From Geopsychrobacteraceae bacterium (GTDB taxonomy: Bacteria > Desulfobacterota > Desulfuromonadia > Desulfuromonadales > Geopsychrobacteraceae): 64,000 bases of DNA. The notes beneath the pieces were generated by a model. The model searched no databases and was not told the DNA's origin. It saw nothing but the letters and a program-made list of their open reading frames with translations. Within the stretch, counting starts at the first letter, position 1; each line of letters starts with the position of its first letter. The stretch is from the NCBI GenBank assembly GCA_963668145.2, contig CAXXJU010000031.1:55989-119988 (forward strand), in the 5' to 3' direction. The translations under genes and the position numbers were made by a program. This document shows, piece by piece, positions 1,889-63,313 of the stretch.

Positions 1889-3487
1889 TTAACCCAAGGA
1901 CAACAGAATATAACCGACGGCGCCGGCGATTACCCCGTAGATGACCATGGGGATGGCCGTCCGCTTGAGAATATAACCTTCCGAGTTCTTTAAGCCCAAC
2001 ACTGAGCAGACCGCGACGATATTGTGAATACAGGTCATATTGCCCATGCCGCCGCCGACCGACTGCATGGCCAGAACGGTAATCTTATTGAGCCCAAGCT
2101 GGTTGGCAATGGAGGCCTGGATGCCGCCGAAGGTCAGGTTGGAAACCGTATTGGAGCCGGAGAAAAATGCACCCAGCGCCCCAAGGTAAGCGGCCAGGAA
2201 CGACCATGCCCCACCGAACACGTCTGCGAAAGCGGTCCCGATAATGATGGTGTTGGCTTTAACTTCAGGGGTCCCGAGCATCAGCAGCTTGACGAAAACC
2301 AGCGCTCCGAGCAAGGCCAGGGTGGGGTTTCTCATCTGGCTGATGGACTCGGAAGACACCCGCTGAATCACCTCACCTTTAGCCTGAAAGACACAGAAGG
2401 CGACCAGGGAAATGAAGATGAACGGGATCAGGAAAGGAATGTACAGGCTGGCGAACGAAAAGTTGACCCCGGTTCCGAAGATACCGCTGACATTGATCAC
2501 CAGGGCCCGGCTGACATCCAGATCCCCGAAGGAACCGAGGCCGGCGTGGAACATCGGTGCGTTGCTTTTCAGCAGAGCATTGATACCGATGGGTTTGATC
2601 CGGGTGATAAGAAGCATGGCGACCGTTCCCCAGAGCGGGAAGGAGGCCTTGAAGATTTTGCCGAAGGGGATAGCACTGTGCGGTGCGCCGACTCCGTCTT
2701 CCTTGCACAGACCGTAACCTTTGACGGCGAAGAAGATCGAGGCAACGGTACCGATTGCTCCGGCAACAACCGACGGAAACTCATAGTTGACCTGAGCTGA
2801 GACATAGTAGGGAATGATCGTTGCGAAAATGCTCAGATAGACAAAGCCGAGGTTGCGTTTTACCATTCTCCAGTTCAGAGCGAAGGTCAGGGCGATTACC
2901 GGAATAATCAATGCTGCGACCCCGTGAATCAAGGCGGCCTGTTGACCAACGGCCAGCAATTCCGGATCGGTCAGGTTGGCGCCTTTGCCGAGGCCGAACC
3001 AGCCGGGGGTACCGACCGCTCCAAAGTGGACCGGAACCGAGTTCATGATCAGGCAGAGAATCGCAACCCGGACCGGTTTGAAGCCGAGGCCGACCAGGAT
3101 CGGTGCAGCAATGGCAGCGGGGGTGCCGAATCCGGAAGCGCCTTCAATGAGGAAGGCAAAAGCCCAGCCGATGATCATGGCCTGGGCAACCTGGTTGGTG
3201 GTGATACCGTTAAGCCAGGTCCGGATGGTGTCCATCGCGCCGGTATATTCCATGGTTTTGAAGAGGAAGATGGCGCCGAACACGATGGAAATCGGCACCC
3301 AGGCCGTCAACAGACCATTGACCACTGTTGCGTTGACGAGGTTGGCATCAATGTCAAAATAAACCAGTTTGACAACGTACAGGATCAAGGCGACCAGGGG
3401 GAGAGCCTGAAACGAAGGCATACTGCTTTTTTTTGTCATCAGCCAGATTAGCAAAATAATCGGGAACAGGGAAATCGCGGTTGCCAT
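1889..3487 (-). CDS. lctP: L-lactate permease
   Basis: 532-aa hydrophobic protein with EGASGFGTPAAIAAP and GAFFSGSNTVSNLTFG motifs. Confidence 0.93.
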   Translation of the reverse strand: MATAISLFPIILLIWLMTKKSSMPSFQALPLVALILYVVKLVYFDIDANLVNATVVNGLLTAWVPISIVFGAIFLFKTMEYTGAMDTIRTWLNGITTNQVAQAMIIGWAFAFLIEGASGFGTPAAIAAPILVGLGFKPVRVAILCLIMNSVPVHFGAVGTPGWFGLGKGANLTDPELLAVGQQAALIHGVAALIIPVIALTFALNWRMVKRNLGFVYLSIFATIIPYYVSAQVNYEFPSVVAGAIGTVASIFFAVKGYGLCKEDGVGAPHSAIPFGKIFKASFPLWGTVAMLLITRIKPIGINALLKSNAPMFHAGLGSFGDLDVSRALVINVSGIFGTGVNFSFASLYIPFLIPFIFISLVAFCVFQAKGEVIQRVSSESISQMRNPTLALLGALVFVKLLMLGTPEVKANTIIIGTAFADVFGGAWSFLAAYLGALGAFFSGSNTVSNLTFGGIQASIANQLGLNKITVLAMQSVGGGMGNMTCIHNIVAVCSVLGLKNSEGYILKRTAIPMVIYGVIAGAVGYILLSLG

Positions 3488-6452: not shown

Positions 6453-7748
6453 ATGAATCGTGATGCGGTAGCAAAATGTGTCGAAGAGCTGAAGGAGCTG
6501 GAGGAGCTGCTGATCCAGTGCAGTCGCTGTGGGACTTGCCAGTCAGTCTGTCCGCTGTACAAGAAGGACTGGCAGGAATCTGCGGTTGCCCGCGGCAAGA
6601 TGTATCTCATTGAAGCTCTCTACGAAGGGAAGCTAGATAAAGCCGAGGAAATCTTCAAATATATCGATTATTGTCTGCTTTGCGGACGCTGTAAAAAGAA
6701 CTGCCCCTCCGGAGTGGCCACCGATCAGATCTTCCTGAAGGCCAAGGGGATTCTGCGGCAGGTGAAGAAGATGCCGGCCTGGCAGAAATTAGCCCTGAAG
6801 ATCGCCATGGGTAAGCCTCAGTTCCTGGCGGCCATGAGTCCGCTGTTTCATATCGGTCTGCGTTTGGGAACCCGCAAAGTTGATAACGGAGTTTTCAAGC
6901 CCTACGGCCTCTACAGCCCGTTTATCGGCGATATGACCAAGCGGCATGTGGTGGACATGCCGAGCAAGGCCCTGACCAGCCTCTACGGTGGCTTCAATCA
7001 GGCGGAAAATGAAAAACACCGGGTCATCTTCTACCCCGGCTGTGCAACCACGCTGATTTACGTGCACTGGGGCGTGGCCATCGTTGAAACCCTGCTCCAT
7101 TACGGGGTGTCGGTTTATGTTCCAGAGACCAACAAATGCTGCGGGATTCCTTCGGCAACCATGGGCGAAATGGGCATCTATCGCGATCAGGTCAACAGCA
7201 ATTTCGATTACTTCGATTCGATCAGCGATGCCGACACCGTGTTGATGTGTTGCCCGACCTGTGAATACGGACTGGGCACTATGGGTGAGCAGGAAACCGG
7301 CCGTTCCGGCGGTAAAAAAGTCATGGATGTGGTGCTCTATCTGGCCGAGGTGTTGAAAGTCAAATTGCCGGAAAAAATACCCTTGGTCGGCGGTTCTTCC
7401 CTGCATGTCCCCTGTCATTACAAAACGGGGAAAGAGGGGGTCCTGCGTGACTTCATCCGGTCTAACTTCGACACCGATTTCCAGGAGCTCAAAAACCAGA
7501 GCTGCTGCGGGTTTGGCGGGACTTTCTCGATGAAGAATTATGCCCATACCAAGCAGATCGGCAAGTTGAAGGCCGAGGAAATCAAGCAGCGCGGTTTCGC
7601 CAACCTGTTCACCGCCTGCCCCGGCTGCGCGATGAACCTGACCGACGCCAACCTGACCGAAGGCAATCGGCTGCAGACCACGCACCCGGTGGTGGAGATT
7701 TACGAGCGCTCGATTAAGCCGGCGCAAAAGGCCAGGAAAAAAGCTTAG
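6453..7748 (+). CDS. glcF: Fe-S protein, GlcF family (partner of the FAD subunit)
   Basis: Two CxxCxxCxxxC clusters (CSRCGTCQSVC, CLLCGRCKKNC) and two CCG domains. Confidence 0.88.
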   Translation: MNRDAVAKCVEELKELEELLIQCSRCGTCQSVCPLYKKDWQESAVARGKMYLIEALYEGKLDKAEEIFKYIDYCLLCGRCKKNCPSGVATDQIFLKAKGILRQVKKMPAWQKLALKIAMGKPQFLAAMSPLFHIGLRLGTRKVDNGVFKPYGLYSPFIGDMTKRHVVDMPSKALTSLYGGFNQAENEKHRVIFYPGCATTLIYVHWGVAIVETLLHYGVSVYVPETNKCCGIPSATMGEMGIYRDQVNSNFDYFDSISDADTVLMCCPTCEYGLGTMGEQETGRSGGKKVMDVVLYLAEVLKVKLPEKIPLVGGSSLHVPCHYKTGKEGVLRDFIRSNFDTDFQELKNQSCCGFGGTFSMKNYAHTKQIGKLKAEEIKQRGFANLFTACPGCAMNLTDANLTEGNRLQTTHPVVEIYERSIKPAQKARKKA

Positions 7749-58138: not shown

Positions 58139-58453
58139 AGATTGTTCCCTCTGACAAGATGGGCTTATTTTTTCCTAAGGTCATAAAAAGATGATGACTT
58201 TGCCGGTCCAAAAAGGTGTCATGATCTTATCATATTTCAGGTTTTTTCTACGACATCAACGCTTCAGGACAACTGGTGGAGGCACTACAAAATTTCCTTG
58301 ATGTCGAGTGGATGATGGTTTAGTGTGATCAAACATTGTTATTTTCGAAAGGATGTTCGTTTTAACGGCATCCTGTAAATGTAAAGTCGTGGCGCCTGTT
58401 ATTAAAGGAACTGCGGCTTTTTTTTGTTGGAAAAACAGACTGCAGGGGGGGGC

Positions 58454-58753
58454 ATGAAACTCATCGCTGAAGCTTTTCTTATCCTGTTCTTTCTTGTCAG
58501 TTTAGTCCCTTCTTCTGTTTTTGCTACAACACAGCAGTGTGTCGATGAAGATGACACTGCAAATGCGGTTCTCTTTGTTGACAAAGAGATGAATAAACCG
58601 ATCGAGATAAAACTCACGGCAATTAACCCGATTTATCAGGTCGATGAAAAACGCGGTTGCTGCTCGCATCATGGTGGTGTTGCTTACTGCGGTTCCAGTG
58701 GTTATTGGATTTGTAATGATGGGACGAGGAGTCCGACCTGCCGTTGTGATTGA
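58454..58753 (+). CDS. Small secreted Cys-rich protein
   Basis: Signal peptide and C-terminal RGCCSHHGGVAYC...ICNDGTRSPTCRC. Confidence 0.75.
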   Translation: MKLIAEAFLILFFLVSLVPSSVFATTQQCVDEDDTANAVLFVDKEMNKPIEIKLTAINPIYQVDEKRGCCSHHGGVAYCGSSGYWICNDGTRSPTCRCD

Positions 58754-59039
58754 GATTGTATATTTGCCTACTAAGAAGCTTCGGTTTTTTGTGGCCTACG
58801 GATTAGAAGTCCGTTGCTTCCCAGGTGAGGATCTATTGGCTACGTAAGCTTTCCTATCAAGTAGACAGTTAAAAGTAGAATTTTCAGCGTTCTTTGACGG
58901 CGAATTCACGCAGGAAAAAAATATGGGAAGTGTTTGAATGCATAAGTAAGAAAGCGGAAGCCTCCAACTGGCGGACGGCTCATAATGAGCGGCAGGGTCG
59001 AATAAATCGCCCCGAGTCAGACCCAGAGAGGAGGCTTCC

Positions 59040-60068
59040 ATGGAAAGTATTCACTACATCGGCTTAGACGTCCACAAGAAAACCATCGCTTTCTGTATTA
59101 AAACCCTGAGCGGAAAGAACGTTCGACAAGGGGTTGTGAACGCAGAACGAAACGCGCTACGACATTGGCTGGCGGAATTGTCTTGTCCCTGGATGGGGGC
59201 CATGGAGGCAACGCTGTTTACCGGCTGGATTTACGATTTTCTCAAGCCCCACGCCGTTGAGTTAAAAGTCGCGCACCCGGAAATGCTCAAAGCGATTACC
59301 GCGGCCAAAAAGAAGAACGACCGGGCTGATGCAGAGAAGTTGGCAGATCTTCTGCGCGTCAATCTTCTGCCGGAATGCCACATGATGTCCGAAGAGCTAC
59401 GGGAATTGCGGCGCATTCTTCGCTATCGGAACATGGTCGTTCGCACGGCAGTGCAGATGAAGAACAAAATGGCCGGGTTGATGATGGAGGTCGGCGCGAC
59501 CTACGACAAAAAACGGTTGTATGGGCGTAAATATTTCAACCAACTGATGGGGCGGGTAGACGATGTGCCCGATTCGGTCAAAGAGCTGTTACAACTGAGC
59601 CGCAGCAATCTTGAGCTGTTTACCGCCATCCAGAAGAAACTGGTTCGGACTCTTCGAGAGAATGAGCTGATTCGACGGAGGGTTGAGCTTTTGATGAGTA
59701 TTGCCGGGGTTGGAGAGATCATGGCTTTGACCTGGGTGTTGGAGATCGGTGATCCAACCCGCTTTCACTCCAGTCGGGAAGCCATCAGCTATTGCGGACT
59801 CTGCAGTGCACAACGGGAATCGGCCGGGAAAGATCAACGAGGGCCACTCTCCAAAAAACGCAACAAGCACCTGCAGACCATGCTCATTGAAGCCGCTAAG
59901 CTAGCCCCACGATGGAATATTCAACTGGCGGAATTGCATGAAAAAGAGTTGACCAAAGGCAATCGCAACCGAGCCACTTTAGCTGTTGCACGCAAGCTGG
60001 TTGAATATCTGTTGGCCGTTGATCGACGTGGTACTGCTTTTGAGGAGAGACAATCTCAGGTCGCCTGA
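59040..60068 (+). CDS. IS110-family transposase/recombinase (DEDD RuvC-like)
   Basis: YIGLDVHKK, GAMEAT, KKNDRADAEKLA, SIAGVG, YCGL..RESAG and RNRATLAVARKL motifs. Confidence 0.96.
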   Translation: MESIHYIGLDVHKKTIAFCIKTLSGKNVRQGVVNAERNALRHWLAELSCPWMGAMEATLFTGWIYDFLKPHAVELKVAHPEMLKAITAAKKKNDRADAEKLADLLRVNLLPECHMMSEELRELRRILRYRNMVVRTAVQMKNKMAGLMMEVGATYDKKRLYGRKYFNQLMGRVDDVPDSVKELLQLSRSNLELFTAIQKKLVRTLRENELIRRRVELLMSIAGVGEIMALTWVLEIGDPTRFHSSREAISYCGLCSAQRESAGKDQRGPLSKKRNKHLQTMLIEAAKLAPRWNIQLAELHEKELTKGNRNRATLAVARKLVEYLLAVDRRGTAFEERQSQVA

Positions 60069-60369
60069 GTTGAAGAAAAACAGATAATCTTTACATCAAA
60101 CGATCTTTCCGCCGGGCCTTGCGGACTAGGGACTACGTGAGCTTCGCTGCACGACATTGGGAGTGTTTCAAGGCTGGCGGGTTGGCCCAAACTCAATCTT
60201 CTGTGAAGGGATGATGTCCCGGAGACAGCACATGGATGTCTGGTCGCTGATTTAGCGGACCAAAAGAACAGATCAAAAAGATCGAAGGATGCAAGGGACA
60301 AGGAAAAACAGAGTCGCCACCGGGAGTAGGCCCGCGAGGTAAAGGGAAACCTCCGCTTTCCCCTTGACT
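60069..60369 (+). ncRNA. Candidate IS110 bridge/seek RNA in the 3' non-coding end
   Basis: About 300 nt of structured non-coding DNA containing CATGGATGTC (60231-60240, identical to the element's right end) and AGTGTTTCAAGGC (11/13 match to the left flank). Confidence 0.5.
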
Positions 60370-60528
60370 TTACTTATCATGGATGTCCCAGGTTTTCGAA
60401 CAGTTTCAACAATGGGTATCTCAACAATCGTAAATCTGGCCTCTGGAGATCTTGCTCACCAAGAGAAGGCACTCAGCGAGCATTTGGTTCATCTCCCGGA
60501 GTGGAAGCGGCTGGCTGATGGTGCCAAG

Positions 60529-60595
60529 GGCTAACCTCTCATTCCACCGGACCTGCGCGAAAAGCCGCGCAGACCGGTGAATTCAAACGTTATGC
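60529..60595 (+). other. Integron attC recombination site (67 bp)
   Basis: R'' GGCTAAC, 5-bp spacer, L'' ATTCCAC, central hairpin, L' GTGAAT, 6-bp spacer, R' GTTATGC. The extrahelical base is in the canonical position. Confidence 0.9.
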
Positions 60596-60629
60596 ACTCA
60601 GACATCGCTTGTCGTAGAAAGGATACGAA

Positions 60630-61643
60630 ATGAAGATAGATAAGATAATAAGTTTTTTAACCTATCCCGGAAAGCATGCTGAGGAGCAGCCAGAGATTAG
60701 CGGCGCTACGATTCCCAAAAAGGGAAAGCTTTTTAATATGTTGTCAGGGTTATTTGATAGTTCAGAGTCTGATTGCAACATACCGATAATATTCTTGACT
60801 GAAGATGATTCCCAAAATAATTCTGTTAGAGATGAAATTGTTCAGCTAGCTACATCAAAAAGCATCGGTGATGGCAAGATACTGGCTCAAAGATTGCAAC
60901 TTGCCACAACTGAAAAGTCCGGCATGGGTCTGATATTTTTCACAATTGGTAGTGATGGAGCCAACCATAAAATAGTAATTTCTAGATTTCCTGCAGATGA
61001 AGGTATCGTGGCCGAAAGATCCTCAAATACTCTTAAAGTAGAATTTGTAGAAGAAGTATTCTTGAAGAGCGCCTATTCGTATAAGGCAGTTATGTATCAA
61101 TTTCCAATCCCAAATCACGATCTATGGACGGGGTTTGCCGTGGACAAGCAGGTAAATCATGGTGCAAAAGAGGTTGCCGCTTATTGGATAAGTGATTTTC
61201 TTAAGTCAGACTTTCAAACAACTCCGAAGCAAGGCACTAAAAGATTGGCGATGGCATTGCGAGATGCAATATCAAGTTGTCAAGATACAAATATAAAACA
61301 TGAAATTGTATCGAGCGCGAAGCTCGCAAAAAACATTCCAAATAAAGCTATGTCAATTGAGGAGTTTTGCGACCAATTTCATTTGTCCGACGATGCCAAG
61401 GAGCATATTTGTTCTCAAGTTAAACCTGCACGCCTACTAAAGGATAAGTTTGTTTTCGATAGAGGGGAGTTTGATAAACATCTTTCTTACAAAATGGTTG
61501 AACTAGATAATGGAGCTATTCTATCGGCTCAAGCCTCGAAATTTGATGATTGTTTTGAGGCTACCAGTACCGACAACGACAATAACGTCCTATTTGTTAC
61601 CTCTGGCCGAGTAATTGATGAGAAGTTAAGGAGGTCAAAATAG
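60630..61643 (+). CDS. Hypothetical cassette protein, probable distant YejK/NdpA (NA37) nucleoid-associated family
   Basis: 337 aa. By-eye similarity to YejK as I recall it: LAQRLQLATTEKSGMGLIFF, KEVAAYWISDFL..TTPKQGTKRLAMAL, KFVFDRGEF. Confidence 0.55.
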   Translation: MKIDKIISFLTYPGKHAEEQPEISGATIPKKGKLFNMLSGLFDSSESDCNIPIIFLTEDDSQNNSVRDEIVQLATSKSIGDGKILAQRLQLATTEKSGMGLIFFTIGSDGANHKIVISRFPADEGIVAERSSNTLKVEFVEEVFLKSAYSYKAVMYQFPIPNHDLWTGFAVDKQVNHGAKEVAAYWISDFLKSDFQTTPKQGTKRLAMALRDAISSCQDTNIKHEIVSSAKLAKNIPNKAMSIEEFCDQFHLSDDAKEHICSQVKPARLLKDKFVFDRGEFDKHLSYKMVELDNGAILSAQASKFDDCFEATSTDNDNNVLFVTSGRVIDEKLRRSK

Positions 61644-61646
61644 ATA

Positions 61647-62249
61647 ATGGATATCGATGCAGAATATAGGCAGCGATGGGAGCAATACCTTAAGCCTATT
61701 GCTAACAAACTCCAAGAAAAACTTCTGGATGAGCTAAGGGGCGTGCCACGAATCGATAGGATATCTGCAAGAGCTAAAGACCCTATTAGATTCATGAATA
61801 AATCCCAGAAAACTGCAGATGGCAGACCAAAATACGATGATCCTCTAGTTCAAATACAAGATCAAATAGGCGCAAGGGTTATAGTCTTTTATGTCGATGA
61901 CGTTCTAGTTGTAGAAAAAGCGATTGAGGATTACTACAGGCATATCGAAAAGAAAGATTTGGTTCCAGAATCAGATAGTGAATTTGGATATGTAGGGAAG
62001 CATTATGTATTGAAGTTACCAGAAGATGTAATTGAAGACGAAGATGATAAAACCAAGATACCAAAATTTTTTGAACTTCAGATAAAAACGCTTTTTCAGC
62101 ATGCTTGGAGTGAAGCTAATCACGATCTCGGCTACAAGCCAGATCAGGAGCTTACGAGCCATCACCGTAGAAAGCTTGCATTCACAGCTGCTCAAGCTTG
62201 GGGTGCGGATCAAATATTTTCTGAATTGCTGAGAGATTTAGATGCATAA
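61647..62249 (+). CDS. Stand-alone RelA/SpoT-family nucleotidyltransferase (small alarmone synthetase-like)
   Basis: RAKD, IQDQIGARVI, FGYVGKHY and FELQIKTLFQHAWSEANHDLGYK. No hydrolase or regulatory domains. Confidence 0.9.
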   Translation: MDIDAEYRQRWEQYLKPIANKLQEKLLDELRGVPRIDRISARAKDPIRFMNKSQKTADGRPKYDDPLVQIQDQIGARVIVFYVDDVLVVEKAIEDYYRHIEKKDLVPESDSEFGYVGKHYVLKLPEDVIEDEDDKTKIPKFFELQIKTLFQHAWSEANHDLGYKPDQELTSHHRRKLAFTAAQAWGADQIFSELLRDLDA

Positions 62250-62261
62250 TAAGGCGCTGCA
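62244..62261 (+). other. Truncated attC left arm
   Basis: GCATAAT-AAGGC-GCTGCA overlaps the synthetase stop codon. GCATAA(T) is the complement of the upstream R' GTTATGC at 6/7 positions. Confidence 0.55.
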
Positions 62262-62269
62262 AGAAAAAG

Positions 62270-63313
62270 AAAAGGGGTCAAGTCTCGTTTTGACTTTTAA
62301 TTACTGACTGCTATGCTCTGTTCATGTCCAGACCTCTCCGAATAGAATACCCCCGGTGCCTGGTACCATGTCATGAACCGTGGCCGCCGGAAAGAAGATA
62401 TCTTTTTTGATCAGGATGATTTCCAGCTATTCCTGGAGATTCTGAAAGATACCGCGCGCATGTGGAACCTGCGTGTGGCGGCCTATTGTCTGATGTCTAA
62501 TCATTATCATCTTCTGGTACAAACAGCGGGTGGTAATCTCGGGCGTTGCCTGCGGCATCTTAATGGCGTCTATACGCAACGATTTAATCGCACGCACCGA
62601 CTTGATGGGCAGTTGTTTCGAGGTCGCTATAAGGCCGTACTTGTTGAAGATGATGAACATTTATTGCAACTGCTTCGGTATGTCCACCGTAATCCCCTTG
62701 AAGCCAAAATGGCCGAATCGCTTGAAGCATATCCGTGGAGCAGTCATTGTGCGTATCTGCCATCACGAAAGGGTTGGGAGTGGGTATTTAGGGATAAATT
62801 GCTGGCGATGTTTTCATCTTCCCCCAAAGAGGCCTTTGCTGGATATCTTCACTTTGTTGATCAGGACAACACTCCAGAAGTGCAGCATTTTTATTCTCTG
62901 AAAAACCTTCCTTCCATATTTGGGTCAGCAGGGTTTATTGATAGGATTCGCAGCCAGCTTGGTTCGTCACCTCGCTCTAAAGATGTTCCACAATCTGCAA
63001 TACTGTCTGTTGAGTTCACTGATATTGAAGCAGCTGTGTGCCGAGTTTACTGCATAACCAGGGAGCAGCTGCTGACTTCGCGGCGTGGTGAAACGAATCA
63101 ACCGAGAGATTTGGCTATGTATCTATTGCGCAAACATTCACGTAAGACTTTGGCTGAAATAGGGCAATGCTTTGAAATTGCCAATTACAGCACTGTCAGC
63201 AGCGGCATTATCCGAGCGCAGAAAGCGCTAAAAACAGATCATGTTGTGCGTAAGATCTTTGGAGATATGGAACAGTGTCTTCGCAAAAGTCAAAACGAGA
63301 CCTGACCCCTTTT
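62270..63313 (+). mobile_element. HUH (Y1/RAYT-like) transposase element bounded by 29-bp terminal inverted repeats
   Basis: AAAAGGGGTCAAGTCTCGTTTTGACTTTT (62270-62298) and AAAAGTCAAAACGAGACCTGACCCCTTTT (63285-63313) match 28/29. Confidence 0.88.
62324..63305 (+). CDS. Y1/IS200-like HUH transposase with a C-terminal DnaA-like HTH (frameshifted as sequenced in the C5 run at 62350-62354)
   Basis: MSRPLRIEYPGAWYHVMNRG after correction, AYCLMSNHYHLL (HUH), LFRGRYK, YVHRNP and YPWSS. C-terminal PRDLAMYLLRKHS..TLAEIG..F..NYSTVS. Confidence 0.9.

Follow-up and report, generated by a model that had tools for sequence, protein, structure and literature searches.

A YejK-fold protein gene and a small alarmone synthetase gene on an integron cassette: a candidate variant of the PANGU phage-defense system

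In a 64,000-nt stretch of DNA from a Geopsychrobacteraceae bacterium (contig CAXXJU010000031.1, positions 55,989 to 119,988 of the forward strand; referred to here as the window), two adjacent forward-strand genes code for a protein with a predicted YejK fold and a small alarmone synthetase (SAS), a combination that resembles the recently described PANGU phage-defense system. Gene 1 (60630-61643) has an AAGGA ribosome-binding site and codes for 337 amino acids, and gene 2 (61647-62249) codes for 200 amino acids; the TAG stop codon of gene 1 is followed by ATA, such that the two open reading frames (ORFs) are in the same frame with a 3-nt gap between them. The GC content is 0.39-0.40 over the gene pair compared to 0.50-0.55 in the flanking DNA, and this dip, together with the ORF coordinates, bears out the original prediction of two AT-rich genes 3 bp apart, which had been made from the letters of the window. 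No convincing sigma-70 promoter was found in the 230 nt 5′ of gene 1. The gene 1 product is a putative nucleoid-bound sensor resembling the PANGU protein Pag1A, and the gene 2 product is a putative effector of the RelQ/RelP type, which lacks the DNA-mimic (DMK) domain present in its PANGU counterpart, Pag1B.

The gene 2 product matches the Pfam family RelA_SpoT (PF04607, E 2.8e-12), and a Pfam scan identified no hydrolase domain in it. The motifs RAKD (residues 42-45), DQIGAR (72-77), GYVGKHY (114-120), and FELQIKTLFQHAWSEANHDLGYK (142-164) are invariant or nearly so across 42 relatives, with R42, K44, D72, R77, Y115, H119, E143, Q145, K147, H159, D160, Y163, and K164 each invariant in the 42-sequence alignment. 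An AlphaFold2 model (pLDDT 90) has the synthetase fold throughout its 200 residues, and the top Foldseek matches are Bacillus subtilis SAS1 and Staphylococcus aureus RelP, both aligning over the full length with TM scores of 0.70-0.76. Judged from these alignments, the enzyme appears to be under purifying selection, and we predict that it is a catalytically intact RelQ/RelP-like SAS. The intact Rel synthetase motifs and the lack of a hydrolase had both been anticipated correctly, as had the lack of an alarmone hydrolase nearby; there is no HD_4 hydrolase domain on the contig that carries the window (C31), and the four HD_4 matches of the genome lie on other contigs. The genome, which is 99.8% complete, has seven RelA_SpoT ORFs, only one of which is a long RSH protein (726 aa).

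Gene 1 is more divergent. A phmmer search of the PDB with its sequence gave nothing useful, but an AlphaFold2 model (pLDDT 82) has a single significant Foldseek match in the PDB, to Escherichia coli YejK (9be2; E 2.2e-8, probability 1.00, 329 columns), with the next match at E 0.14. Sequence identity in this structural alignment is 12%, and the TM score is 0.39, a low value that may reflect a different orientation of the domains. At the sequence level, the gene 1 family is related to nucleoid-associated proteins (NAPs) from canonical-looking PANGU operons on plasmids of Klebsiella pneumoniae and Ochrobactrum, which are described below; hhalign aligns the family with the PF04245-positive Klebsiella NAP over 289 columns (E 1e-5) and with the Ochrobactrum NAP at E 1.4e-3, and BLASTP reports 26% identity between gene 1 and the Klebsiella NAP over 136 aa (E 6e-4). 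A conserved G202-T-K204-R205-L-A motif lies within the segment of gene 1 that aligns with the canonical NAPs. From the structural model and these profile alignments, gene 1 is predicted to code for a YejK-fold protein that is a remote homolog of the PF04245-positive Pag1A-like proteins. The 99.8%-complete genome has no PF04245 (YejK) match, and gene 1 may code for the sole YejK-fold protein of the organism.

The two genes are passed on together in at least 11 phyla. A search with gene 1 identified 66 loci among about 185,000 species genomes, and gene 2 is the next gene in all 65 that have downstream DNA; the 66 genomes are a lower bound because the scan uses peptide patterns, and the distribution is patchy. 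Approached from the other side, a search with gene 2 gave 74 metagenome or viral loci with enough upstream DNA, and gene 1 is adjacent in 69 of these as scored by script, or in 71 of 74 when two loci with partial gene 1 matches (L142 and L173) are provisionally counted as present. The pair is thus co-conserved whichever gene is used for the search. Most of the gene 1 and gene 2 homologs overlap by 4 nt among 61 related loci, and out of 1.84 billion representative clusters (50% identity), 778 are matched by a profile of gene 1. The hosts belong to the Pseudomonadota, Desulfobacterota, Acidobacteriota, Planctomycetota, Chloroflexota, Gemmatimonadota, Bacteroidota, Eremiobacterota, Myxococcota, Armatimonadota, and Spirochaetota, and the pair is carried on integron cassettes, plasmids, and predicted viral contigs.

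The remaining three of the 74 loci are viral contigs with a solo or broken gene 2 (L191:5893-6615, L188:2391-3095, and L193:5980-6480). One of these synthetases (240 aa, with HDLGYK changed to HNIAYK) is encoded amid small acidic proteins on a contig of 174 kb, another directly follows a large terminase gene, and one is broken. Three other loci have a split gene 1 and an intact gene 2, all in metagenome-assembled genomes (MAGs), where the splits are possibly assembly errors. In an Anaerolineae MAG (L045:7032-8942), the gene 2 homolog is split by an insertion of ~1.3 kb and gene 1 is intact.

The boundaries of the mobile unit can be located by comparison with two other records. An assembly of Saccharophagus degradans (L095) and a metagenome scaffold (L096) carry the same two genes, with nucleotide identities to the window of 94.6% and 85%, respectively, and in both the pair sits among runs of small same-strand ORFs. 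Homology to both records begins at 60600-60611, just 3′ of a GTTATGC sequence that is present in all three, and the sequences 5′ of it are unrelated; homology ends at 62252, in a GCATAA(C/T) sequence that overlaps the gene 2 stop codon. In the two other records, GCATAAC is found at the matching place and is followed by a complete 84-nt attC ending in GTTA, whereas the window diverges after GCATAA and then runs into an insertion sequence (IS) at 62266. Because the homology stops at attC-type boundaries, we regard the pair in the window as a genuine two-gene integron cassette, as judged from sequence comparison, whose own attC was interrupted by an IS200-like element.

Upstream of the pair is the attC of a preceding, truncated cassette (60529-60596, forward strand), a 68-nt imperfect hairpin with its GTTATGC core at 60590-60596; the bottom strand folds as an attC with paired R''/R' ends and bulged bases (dG -17.1). 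The IS200-like element is inserted ~16 nt beyond the gene 2 stop, within the attC, leaving a forward-strand remnant (62244-62265) composed of the R'' box GCATAAT and ~15 nt. The mobile cassette that had been proposed is thus supported, although its description as a single attC-bounded cassette holds only in part: the upstream attC is real and the complete attC-bounded form exists in the S. degradans and metagenome records, but in the window the downstream attC of the pair has been reduced to ~20 nt. These boundaries were decided by comparison of the window with the two records, and our relaxed attC scanner is not specific because its background is ~1 match per 4-5 kb. No attC array was found on contig C31 with our home-made scanners, and the only integron integrase of the genome at the TIGR02249 level is on another contig (C14) rather than beside the pair. 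It matches TIGR02249 in two pieces (1493-2438 and 3352-3447, in ORFs of 299 and 117 aa) and may have a frameshift; just past it is one clear attC of 96 nt. Among 61 diverse relatives of the pair, attC-like flanks are rare (three upstream and one downstream), and integron carriage is therefore a trait of a subclade and not of the whole family.

PANGU was reported as a phage-defense system in April 2026, and in type I PANGU the YejK-like Pag1A activates the gRel synthetase Pag1B (bioRxiv 10.64898/2026.04.06.716658). Pag1A clamps chromosomal DNA and is freed when a phage degrades the chromosome; released Pag1A then binds the acidic C-terminal DMK domain of Pag1B, breaking the inactive Pag1B tetramer and giving a 2:1 complex that makes pppGpp (bioRxiv 10.64898/2026.04.06.716658). 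The DMK is indispensable for both Pag1A binding and defense, Pag1B does not label tRNA, and neither gene is toxic alone, although a DNA-binding-deficient Pag1A renders the pair toxic (bioRxiv 10.64898/2026.04.06.716658). The preprint surveyed genomes with the NA37/IPR007358 hidden Markov model (HMM) at E<1e-10 and ≥300 aa, and mentions a SLATT/DUF4231 gene with PANGU (bioRxiv 10.64898/2026.04.06.716658). The original prediction stated that no named system has this pairing; that claim of novelty falls, because the pairing of a YejK-like protein and a synthetase is already described as PANGU. What is new is its DMK-less, HMM-invisible form.

For comparison, we used two canonical-looking PANGU operons, one on a K. 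pneumoniae plasmid (L103) coding for DUF4231/SLATT, a 363-aa NAP, and a 330-aa synthetase, and the other on an Ochrobactrum plasmid (L195) coding for a 362-aa NAP and a 332-aa synthetase. Both share with our family the gene order, NAP first and synthetase second, and the 4-nt overlap. The remote homology of the NAPs is noted above, and the synthetases of the gene 2 family are 26-35% identical to the Pag1B-like proteins (E 1e-15 to 1e-16). Gene 2 is likewise a RelA/SpoT-type enzyme with the catalytic G-loop tyrosine; Y115, in EFGY, corresponds to Y129 of Pag1B and falls on the FTY/FGY motif in alignments with Pag1B-like proteins. A small tree of 26 synthetase domains places the gene 2 family on a long branch as the sister group of a pair of Pag1B-like sequences (support 89/76), and any assignment to the gRel subfamily would be tentative. 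As with PANGU, the pair has moved horizontally across phyla and is often near defense genes.

There are also differences. Gene 2 is 200 aa long compared to 330-332 aa for the Pag1B-like proteins, has just 28-35% identity to their synthetase domains, and ends at the equivalent of position ~213 of the 330-aa Klebsiella synthetase, where the synthetase domain ends, such that the whole C-terminal DMK is missing. PF04245, our proxy for the NA37 HMM of the preprint, matches the Klebsiella and Ochrobactrum NAPs at E 1e-17 and 1.5e-11, respectively, but does not recognize gene 1, and the preprint's survey would thus have missed the gene 1 family. No SLATT gene accompanies the pair. The match to the described system is therefore partial, with the same pairing but neither the DMK nor the PF04245 signature, and by its sequence the gene 1/gene 2 family is best placed as a PANGU variant and not as a canonical member.

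We propose, with a probability of about 0.6, that the pair is a PANGU-like abortive-infection module in which the contact between sensor and effector differs from the published one. By analogy, the two genes would form one mobile, translationally coupled defense module, composed of a nucleoid-associated sensor and an alarmone-synthetase effector. In an uninfected cell, chromosomal DNA would retain the gene 1 protein, with the conserved K204/R205 patch as a plausible point of contact, and the gene 2 protein would be an inactive RelQ-like oligomer, probably tetrameric. Degradation of the chromosome by a phage would free the gene 1 protein to bind the synthetase and switch it on; conversion of ATP and GTP/GDP into (p)ppGpp would then drain the nucleotides, halt transcription and translation, and abort the infection. 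Because gene 2 lacks a DMK, the contact must differ from that solved for Pag1A2-Pag1B, and we infer that it is probably made directly on the synthetase core or the terminal helices. The logic put forward originally, with a DNA-binding partner that senses phage and controls the synthetase, matches the experiments on the related Pag1A and Pag1B insofar as the analogy holds; the alternative offered alongside it, that the YejK-like protein restrains the synthetase, would be the opposite of PANGU, in which the partner activates and neither gene is toxic alone.

Several observations weigh against a PANGU-like module. The DMK is absent from all 59 full-length members of the gene 2 family that were measured (198-225 aa), and the PANGU activation mechanism thus cannot simply be copied over. 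The tree support for the sister relationship to Pag1B is moderate and the branch is long, and by HMM score the closest relatives of gene 2 outside its family are synthetases fused to TPR repeats (107 bits) rather than the Pag1B-like proteins (77 bits). Gene 1 has no match in Pfam, NCBIfam (E≤1), or PADLOC, and the likeness to the YejK/NA37 family that had been seen by eye holds at the level of the fold, with the Foldseek match to 9be2, but not at that of the PF04245 HMM, which gives no match to gene 1 even at E≤1. PF04245 touches only 4 of 33 gene 1 relatives (best E 0.033), and hhalign finds no signal between the gene 1 family profile and the single E. coli YejK sequence (E 0.57). Many genomic neighbors of the pair are housekeeping genes, and the neighborhood evidence is qualitative, with no background rate. 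Finally, whether the synthetase makes (p)ppGpp or (pp)pApp, or pyrophosphorylates tRNA, is not readable from sequence.

The main rival to the PANGU-like reading is a classical toxic SAS (toxSAS) toxin-antitoxin (TA) pair, in which gene 2 would be constitutively toxic and gene 1 its antitoxin, and the module would mainly stabilize the cassette or mobile element, with or without abortive infection upon loss of the antitoxin. We consider this unlikely, if the strongest of the alternatives. The gene order, with a putative antitoxin gene ahead of a toxin gene, and the 4-nt overlap are what is typically seen in a type II TA operon, and Jimmy et al. 2020 (PMC7229694) showed that toxicity is predicted by the presence of a SAS in a conserved bicistronic operon. 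TA cassettes are abundant in integron arrays, and in the metagenome scaffold the array that holds the gene pair includes a HigB/HTH pair; the missing DMK also means that there is no positive sign of an activator mode. However, in the only YejK-like/SAS pairs that have been studied the partner activates the synthetase, with no toxicity from either gene by itself, and the 337-aa gene 1 product, which comprises a full YejK fold, greatly exceeds the usual antitoxins in size. The solo gene-2-like genes on viral contigs are also difficult to accommodate, although a phage could turn a toxin on its host, as are the three MAG loci in which gene 1 is split and gene 2 intact, unless these splits are assembly errors.

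It is rather improbable that the architecture is as proposed but the effector behaves like CapRel, FaRel2, or FaRel, pyrophosphorylating tRNA or making (pp)pApp instead of (p)ppGpp. The toxSAS enzymes share a fold, the conserved motifs do not disclose acceptor specificity, and CapRel is still a significant structural match to gene 2 (E 2e-7); but its TM score of 0.61 ranks below those of SAS1 and RelP, a PDB search with the gene 2 family profile matches exclusively the (p)ppGpp-making RelQ/RelP enzymes and does not retrieve CapRel at E≤1e-3, and Pag1B, from the nearest studied system, makes pppGpp with no labeling of tRNA. More doubtful still is a role outside defense, in which a nucleoid protein would link local (p)ppGpp synthesis to stress or the state of the chromosome for the physiology of the host. 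Gene 2 is most like the housekeeping RelQ/RelP enzymes, gene 1 could serve as the nucleoid protein of a genome that has no canonical PF04245 YejK, and housekeeping genes are common around the pair in other genomes. Against this stand the patchy distribution of the pair (66 of about 185,000 species genomes, a lower bound), its AT-richness relative to the host, its carriage on a cassette that matches one in an unrelated record at 94.6% identity, and its presence on plasmids and viral contigs and beside defense genes. Patchiness, AT-richness, mobile carriage, and defense neighbors are signatures of accessory, horizontally moving defense or addiction modules.

We surveyed the genomic neighborhoods of the pair using the two nearest ORFs on each side at 58 loci, for a total of 229 ORFs. 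The neighbors include DNA methylases and NaeI, DpnII/MboI, EcoO109I, EcoRII, and Mrr nucleases, as well as DRT4, DRT6, RmrA, AbiTii, a HEPN protein, Wadjet JetA, and a DarT-associated NADAR protein; members of PADLOC PDC candidate families, integrases, a resolvase, and a phage portal are also present. There is no conserved third gene among the 229 ORFs. The neighborhood fits accessory or defense DNA. In the S. degradans array (L095:3209-5872), the ORF directly upstream of the pair codes for 887 aa with weak PHP, AAA_15, and AAA_21 matches, and may be another defense cassette.

In the window, the cassette lies between two mobile elements. The IS200/Y1-type element to the right (62266-63313, forward strand) codes for a transposase with Pfam Y1_Tnp and Bac_DnaA_C matches and has 30-nt terminal inverted repeats; a Y1 transposase with a DnaA-type helix-turn-helix and terminal inverted repeats is unusual among IS200/IS605-type elements. 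A second copy, 96.6% identical, is found on the same contig (C31:137868-138913), and there are fragments around C31:145400-145865. An IS110-family element (58919-60397, forward strand; Pfam DEDD_Tnp_IS110 and Transposase_20) precedes the attC and the truncated cassette ORF on the left. At least three further copies of it, 98-99.7% identical, are on contigs C43, C20, and C45 and were used to set its ends; joining its flanks yielded no ORF that spans the insertion. The segment at 60364-60534 reads as the 3′ end of a gene running into the attC and is probably a truncated neighboring cassette. Left of the IS110 element, a low-GC ORF of 109 aa (58424-58753) with a signal-peptide-like N terminus and a Cys-rich C terminus may also be cassette-borne.

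Other RelA_SpoT proteins came to light in these searches. The TPR-fused synthetases are represented by 479-486-aa proteins on Limnohabitans and Ralstonia plasmids (L196:2384-3823 and L197:2435-3895) with an N-terminal RelA_SpoT domain and C-terminal TPR repeats; they could be fused sensor-effector toxSAS proteins, and the genome that carries the window has a 321-aa relative of them (contig C41, around 6800-7200). On Yersinia and Pantoea plasmids (L101:1379-3879 and L102:810-3816), a protein of unknown function (532 and 709 aa, respectively) forms another conserved pair with a RelA_SpoT protein (300 and 291 aa), the two genes overlapping or abutting, and the Yersinia copy adjoins a reverse transcriptase and a DNA methylase. 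The PADLOC family PDC-S33, a 349-position model, matches gene 2 over model positions 38-191 only (E 1e-9). We considered whether PDC-S33 corresponds to Pag1B and rejected this, as five full-length PDC-S33 genes from 401 genomes stand alone and form a separate clade; the true PDC-S33 proteins are 335-405 aa long, and no gene-1-like ORF of the 300-aa class adjoins them at the five loci listed.

Compared with known systems, gene 2 is similar to the RelQ and RelP (SAS1/SAS2) enzymes of Firmicutes in size and in its full-length fold with long N- and C-terminal helices, and these are its best sequence-profile matches in the PDB, yet at ~20% identity. Both RelQ and RelP are housekeeping genes that stand alone, and neither has an obligate partner gene, whereas the gene 2 family is paired with a YejK-like gene and travels on mobile DNA. 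The toxSAS modules FaRel, FaRel2, PhRel, PhRel2, and CapRel (PMC7229694) likewise have a SAS in a bicistronic, overlapping operon on mobile DNA, but the partner of gene 2, a 337-aa YejK-fold protein, is none of the described antitoxins, and gene 2 lacks the antitoxin or sensor domain that is fused to the C terminus of CapRel. Gene 1 approximates E. coli YejK/NdpA (NA37, PF04245) in length (337 versus 335 aa) and overall fold; it differs in having no HMM match, in forming an operon with an effector, and in being on a mobile cassette.

PANGU is the closest comparison, and the family described here shares its two-part logic while having neither the DMK nor a match to the NA37 HMM. Tentatively, and at a little under even odds, we suggest that the family is a distinct and widespread defense lineage, in which control of a minimal, RelQ-like synthetase that has no DNA-mimic domain falls to a cryptic YejK-fold protein. 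If so, the DMK handshake of PANGU would not be the sole, and perhaps not the ancestral, route by which a nucleoid protein licenses a toxSAS, and surveys based on the NA37 HMM would undercount NAP-based immunity; the findings suggest that the true spread of PANGU-like systems is larger than surveyed. The pair also adds a two-gene defense or addiction candidate to the cargo of integron cassettes, moving between unrelated genomes at ~95% nucleotide identity, and compared with PANGU the family offers a natural test of whether nucleoid-protein sensing works through another interface.

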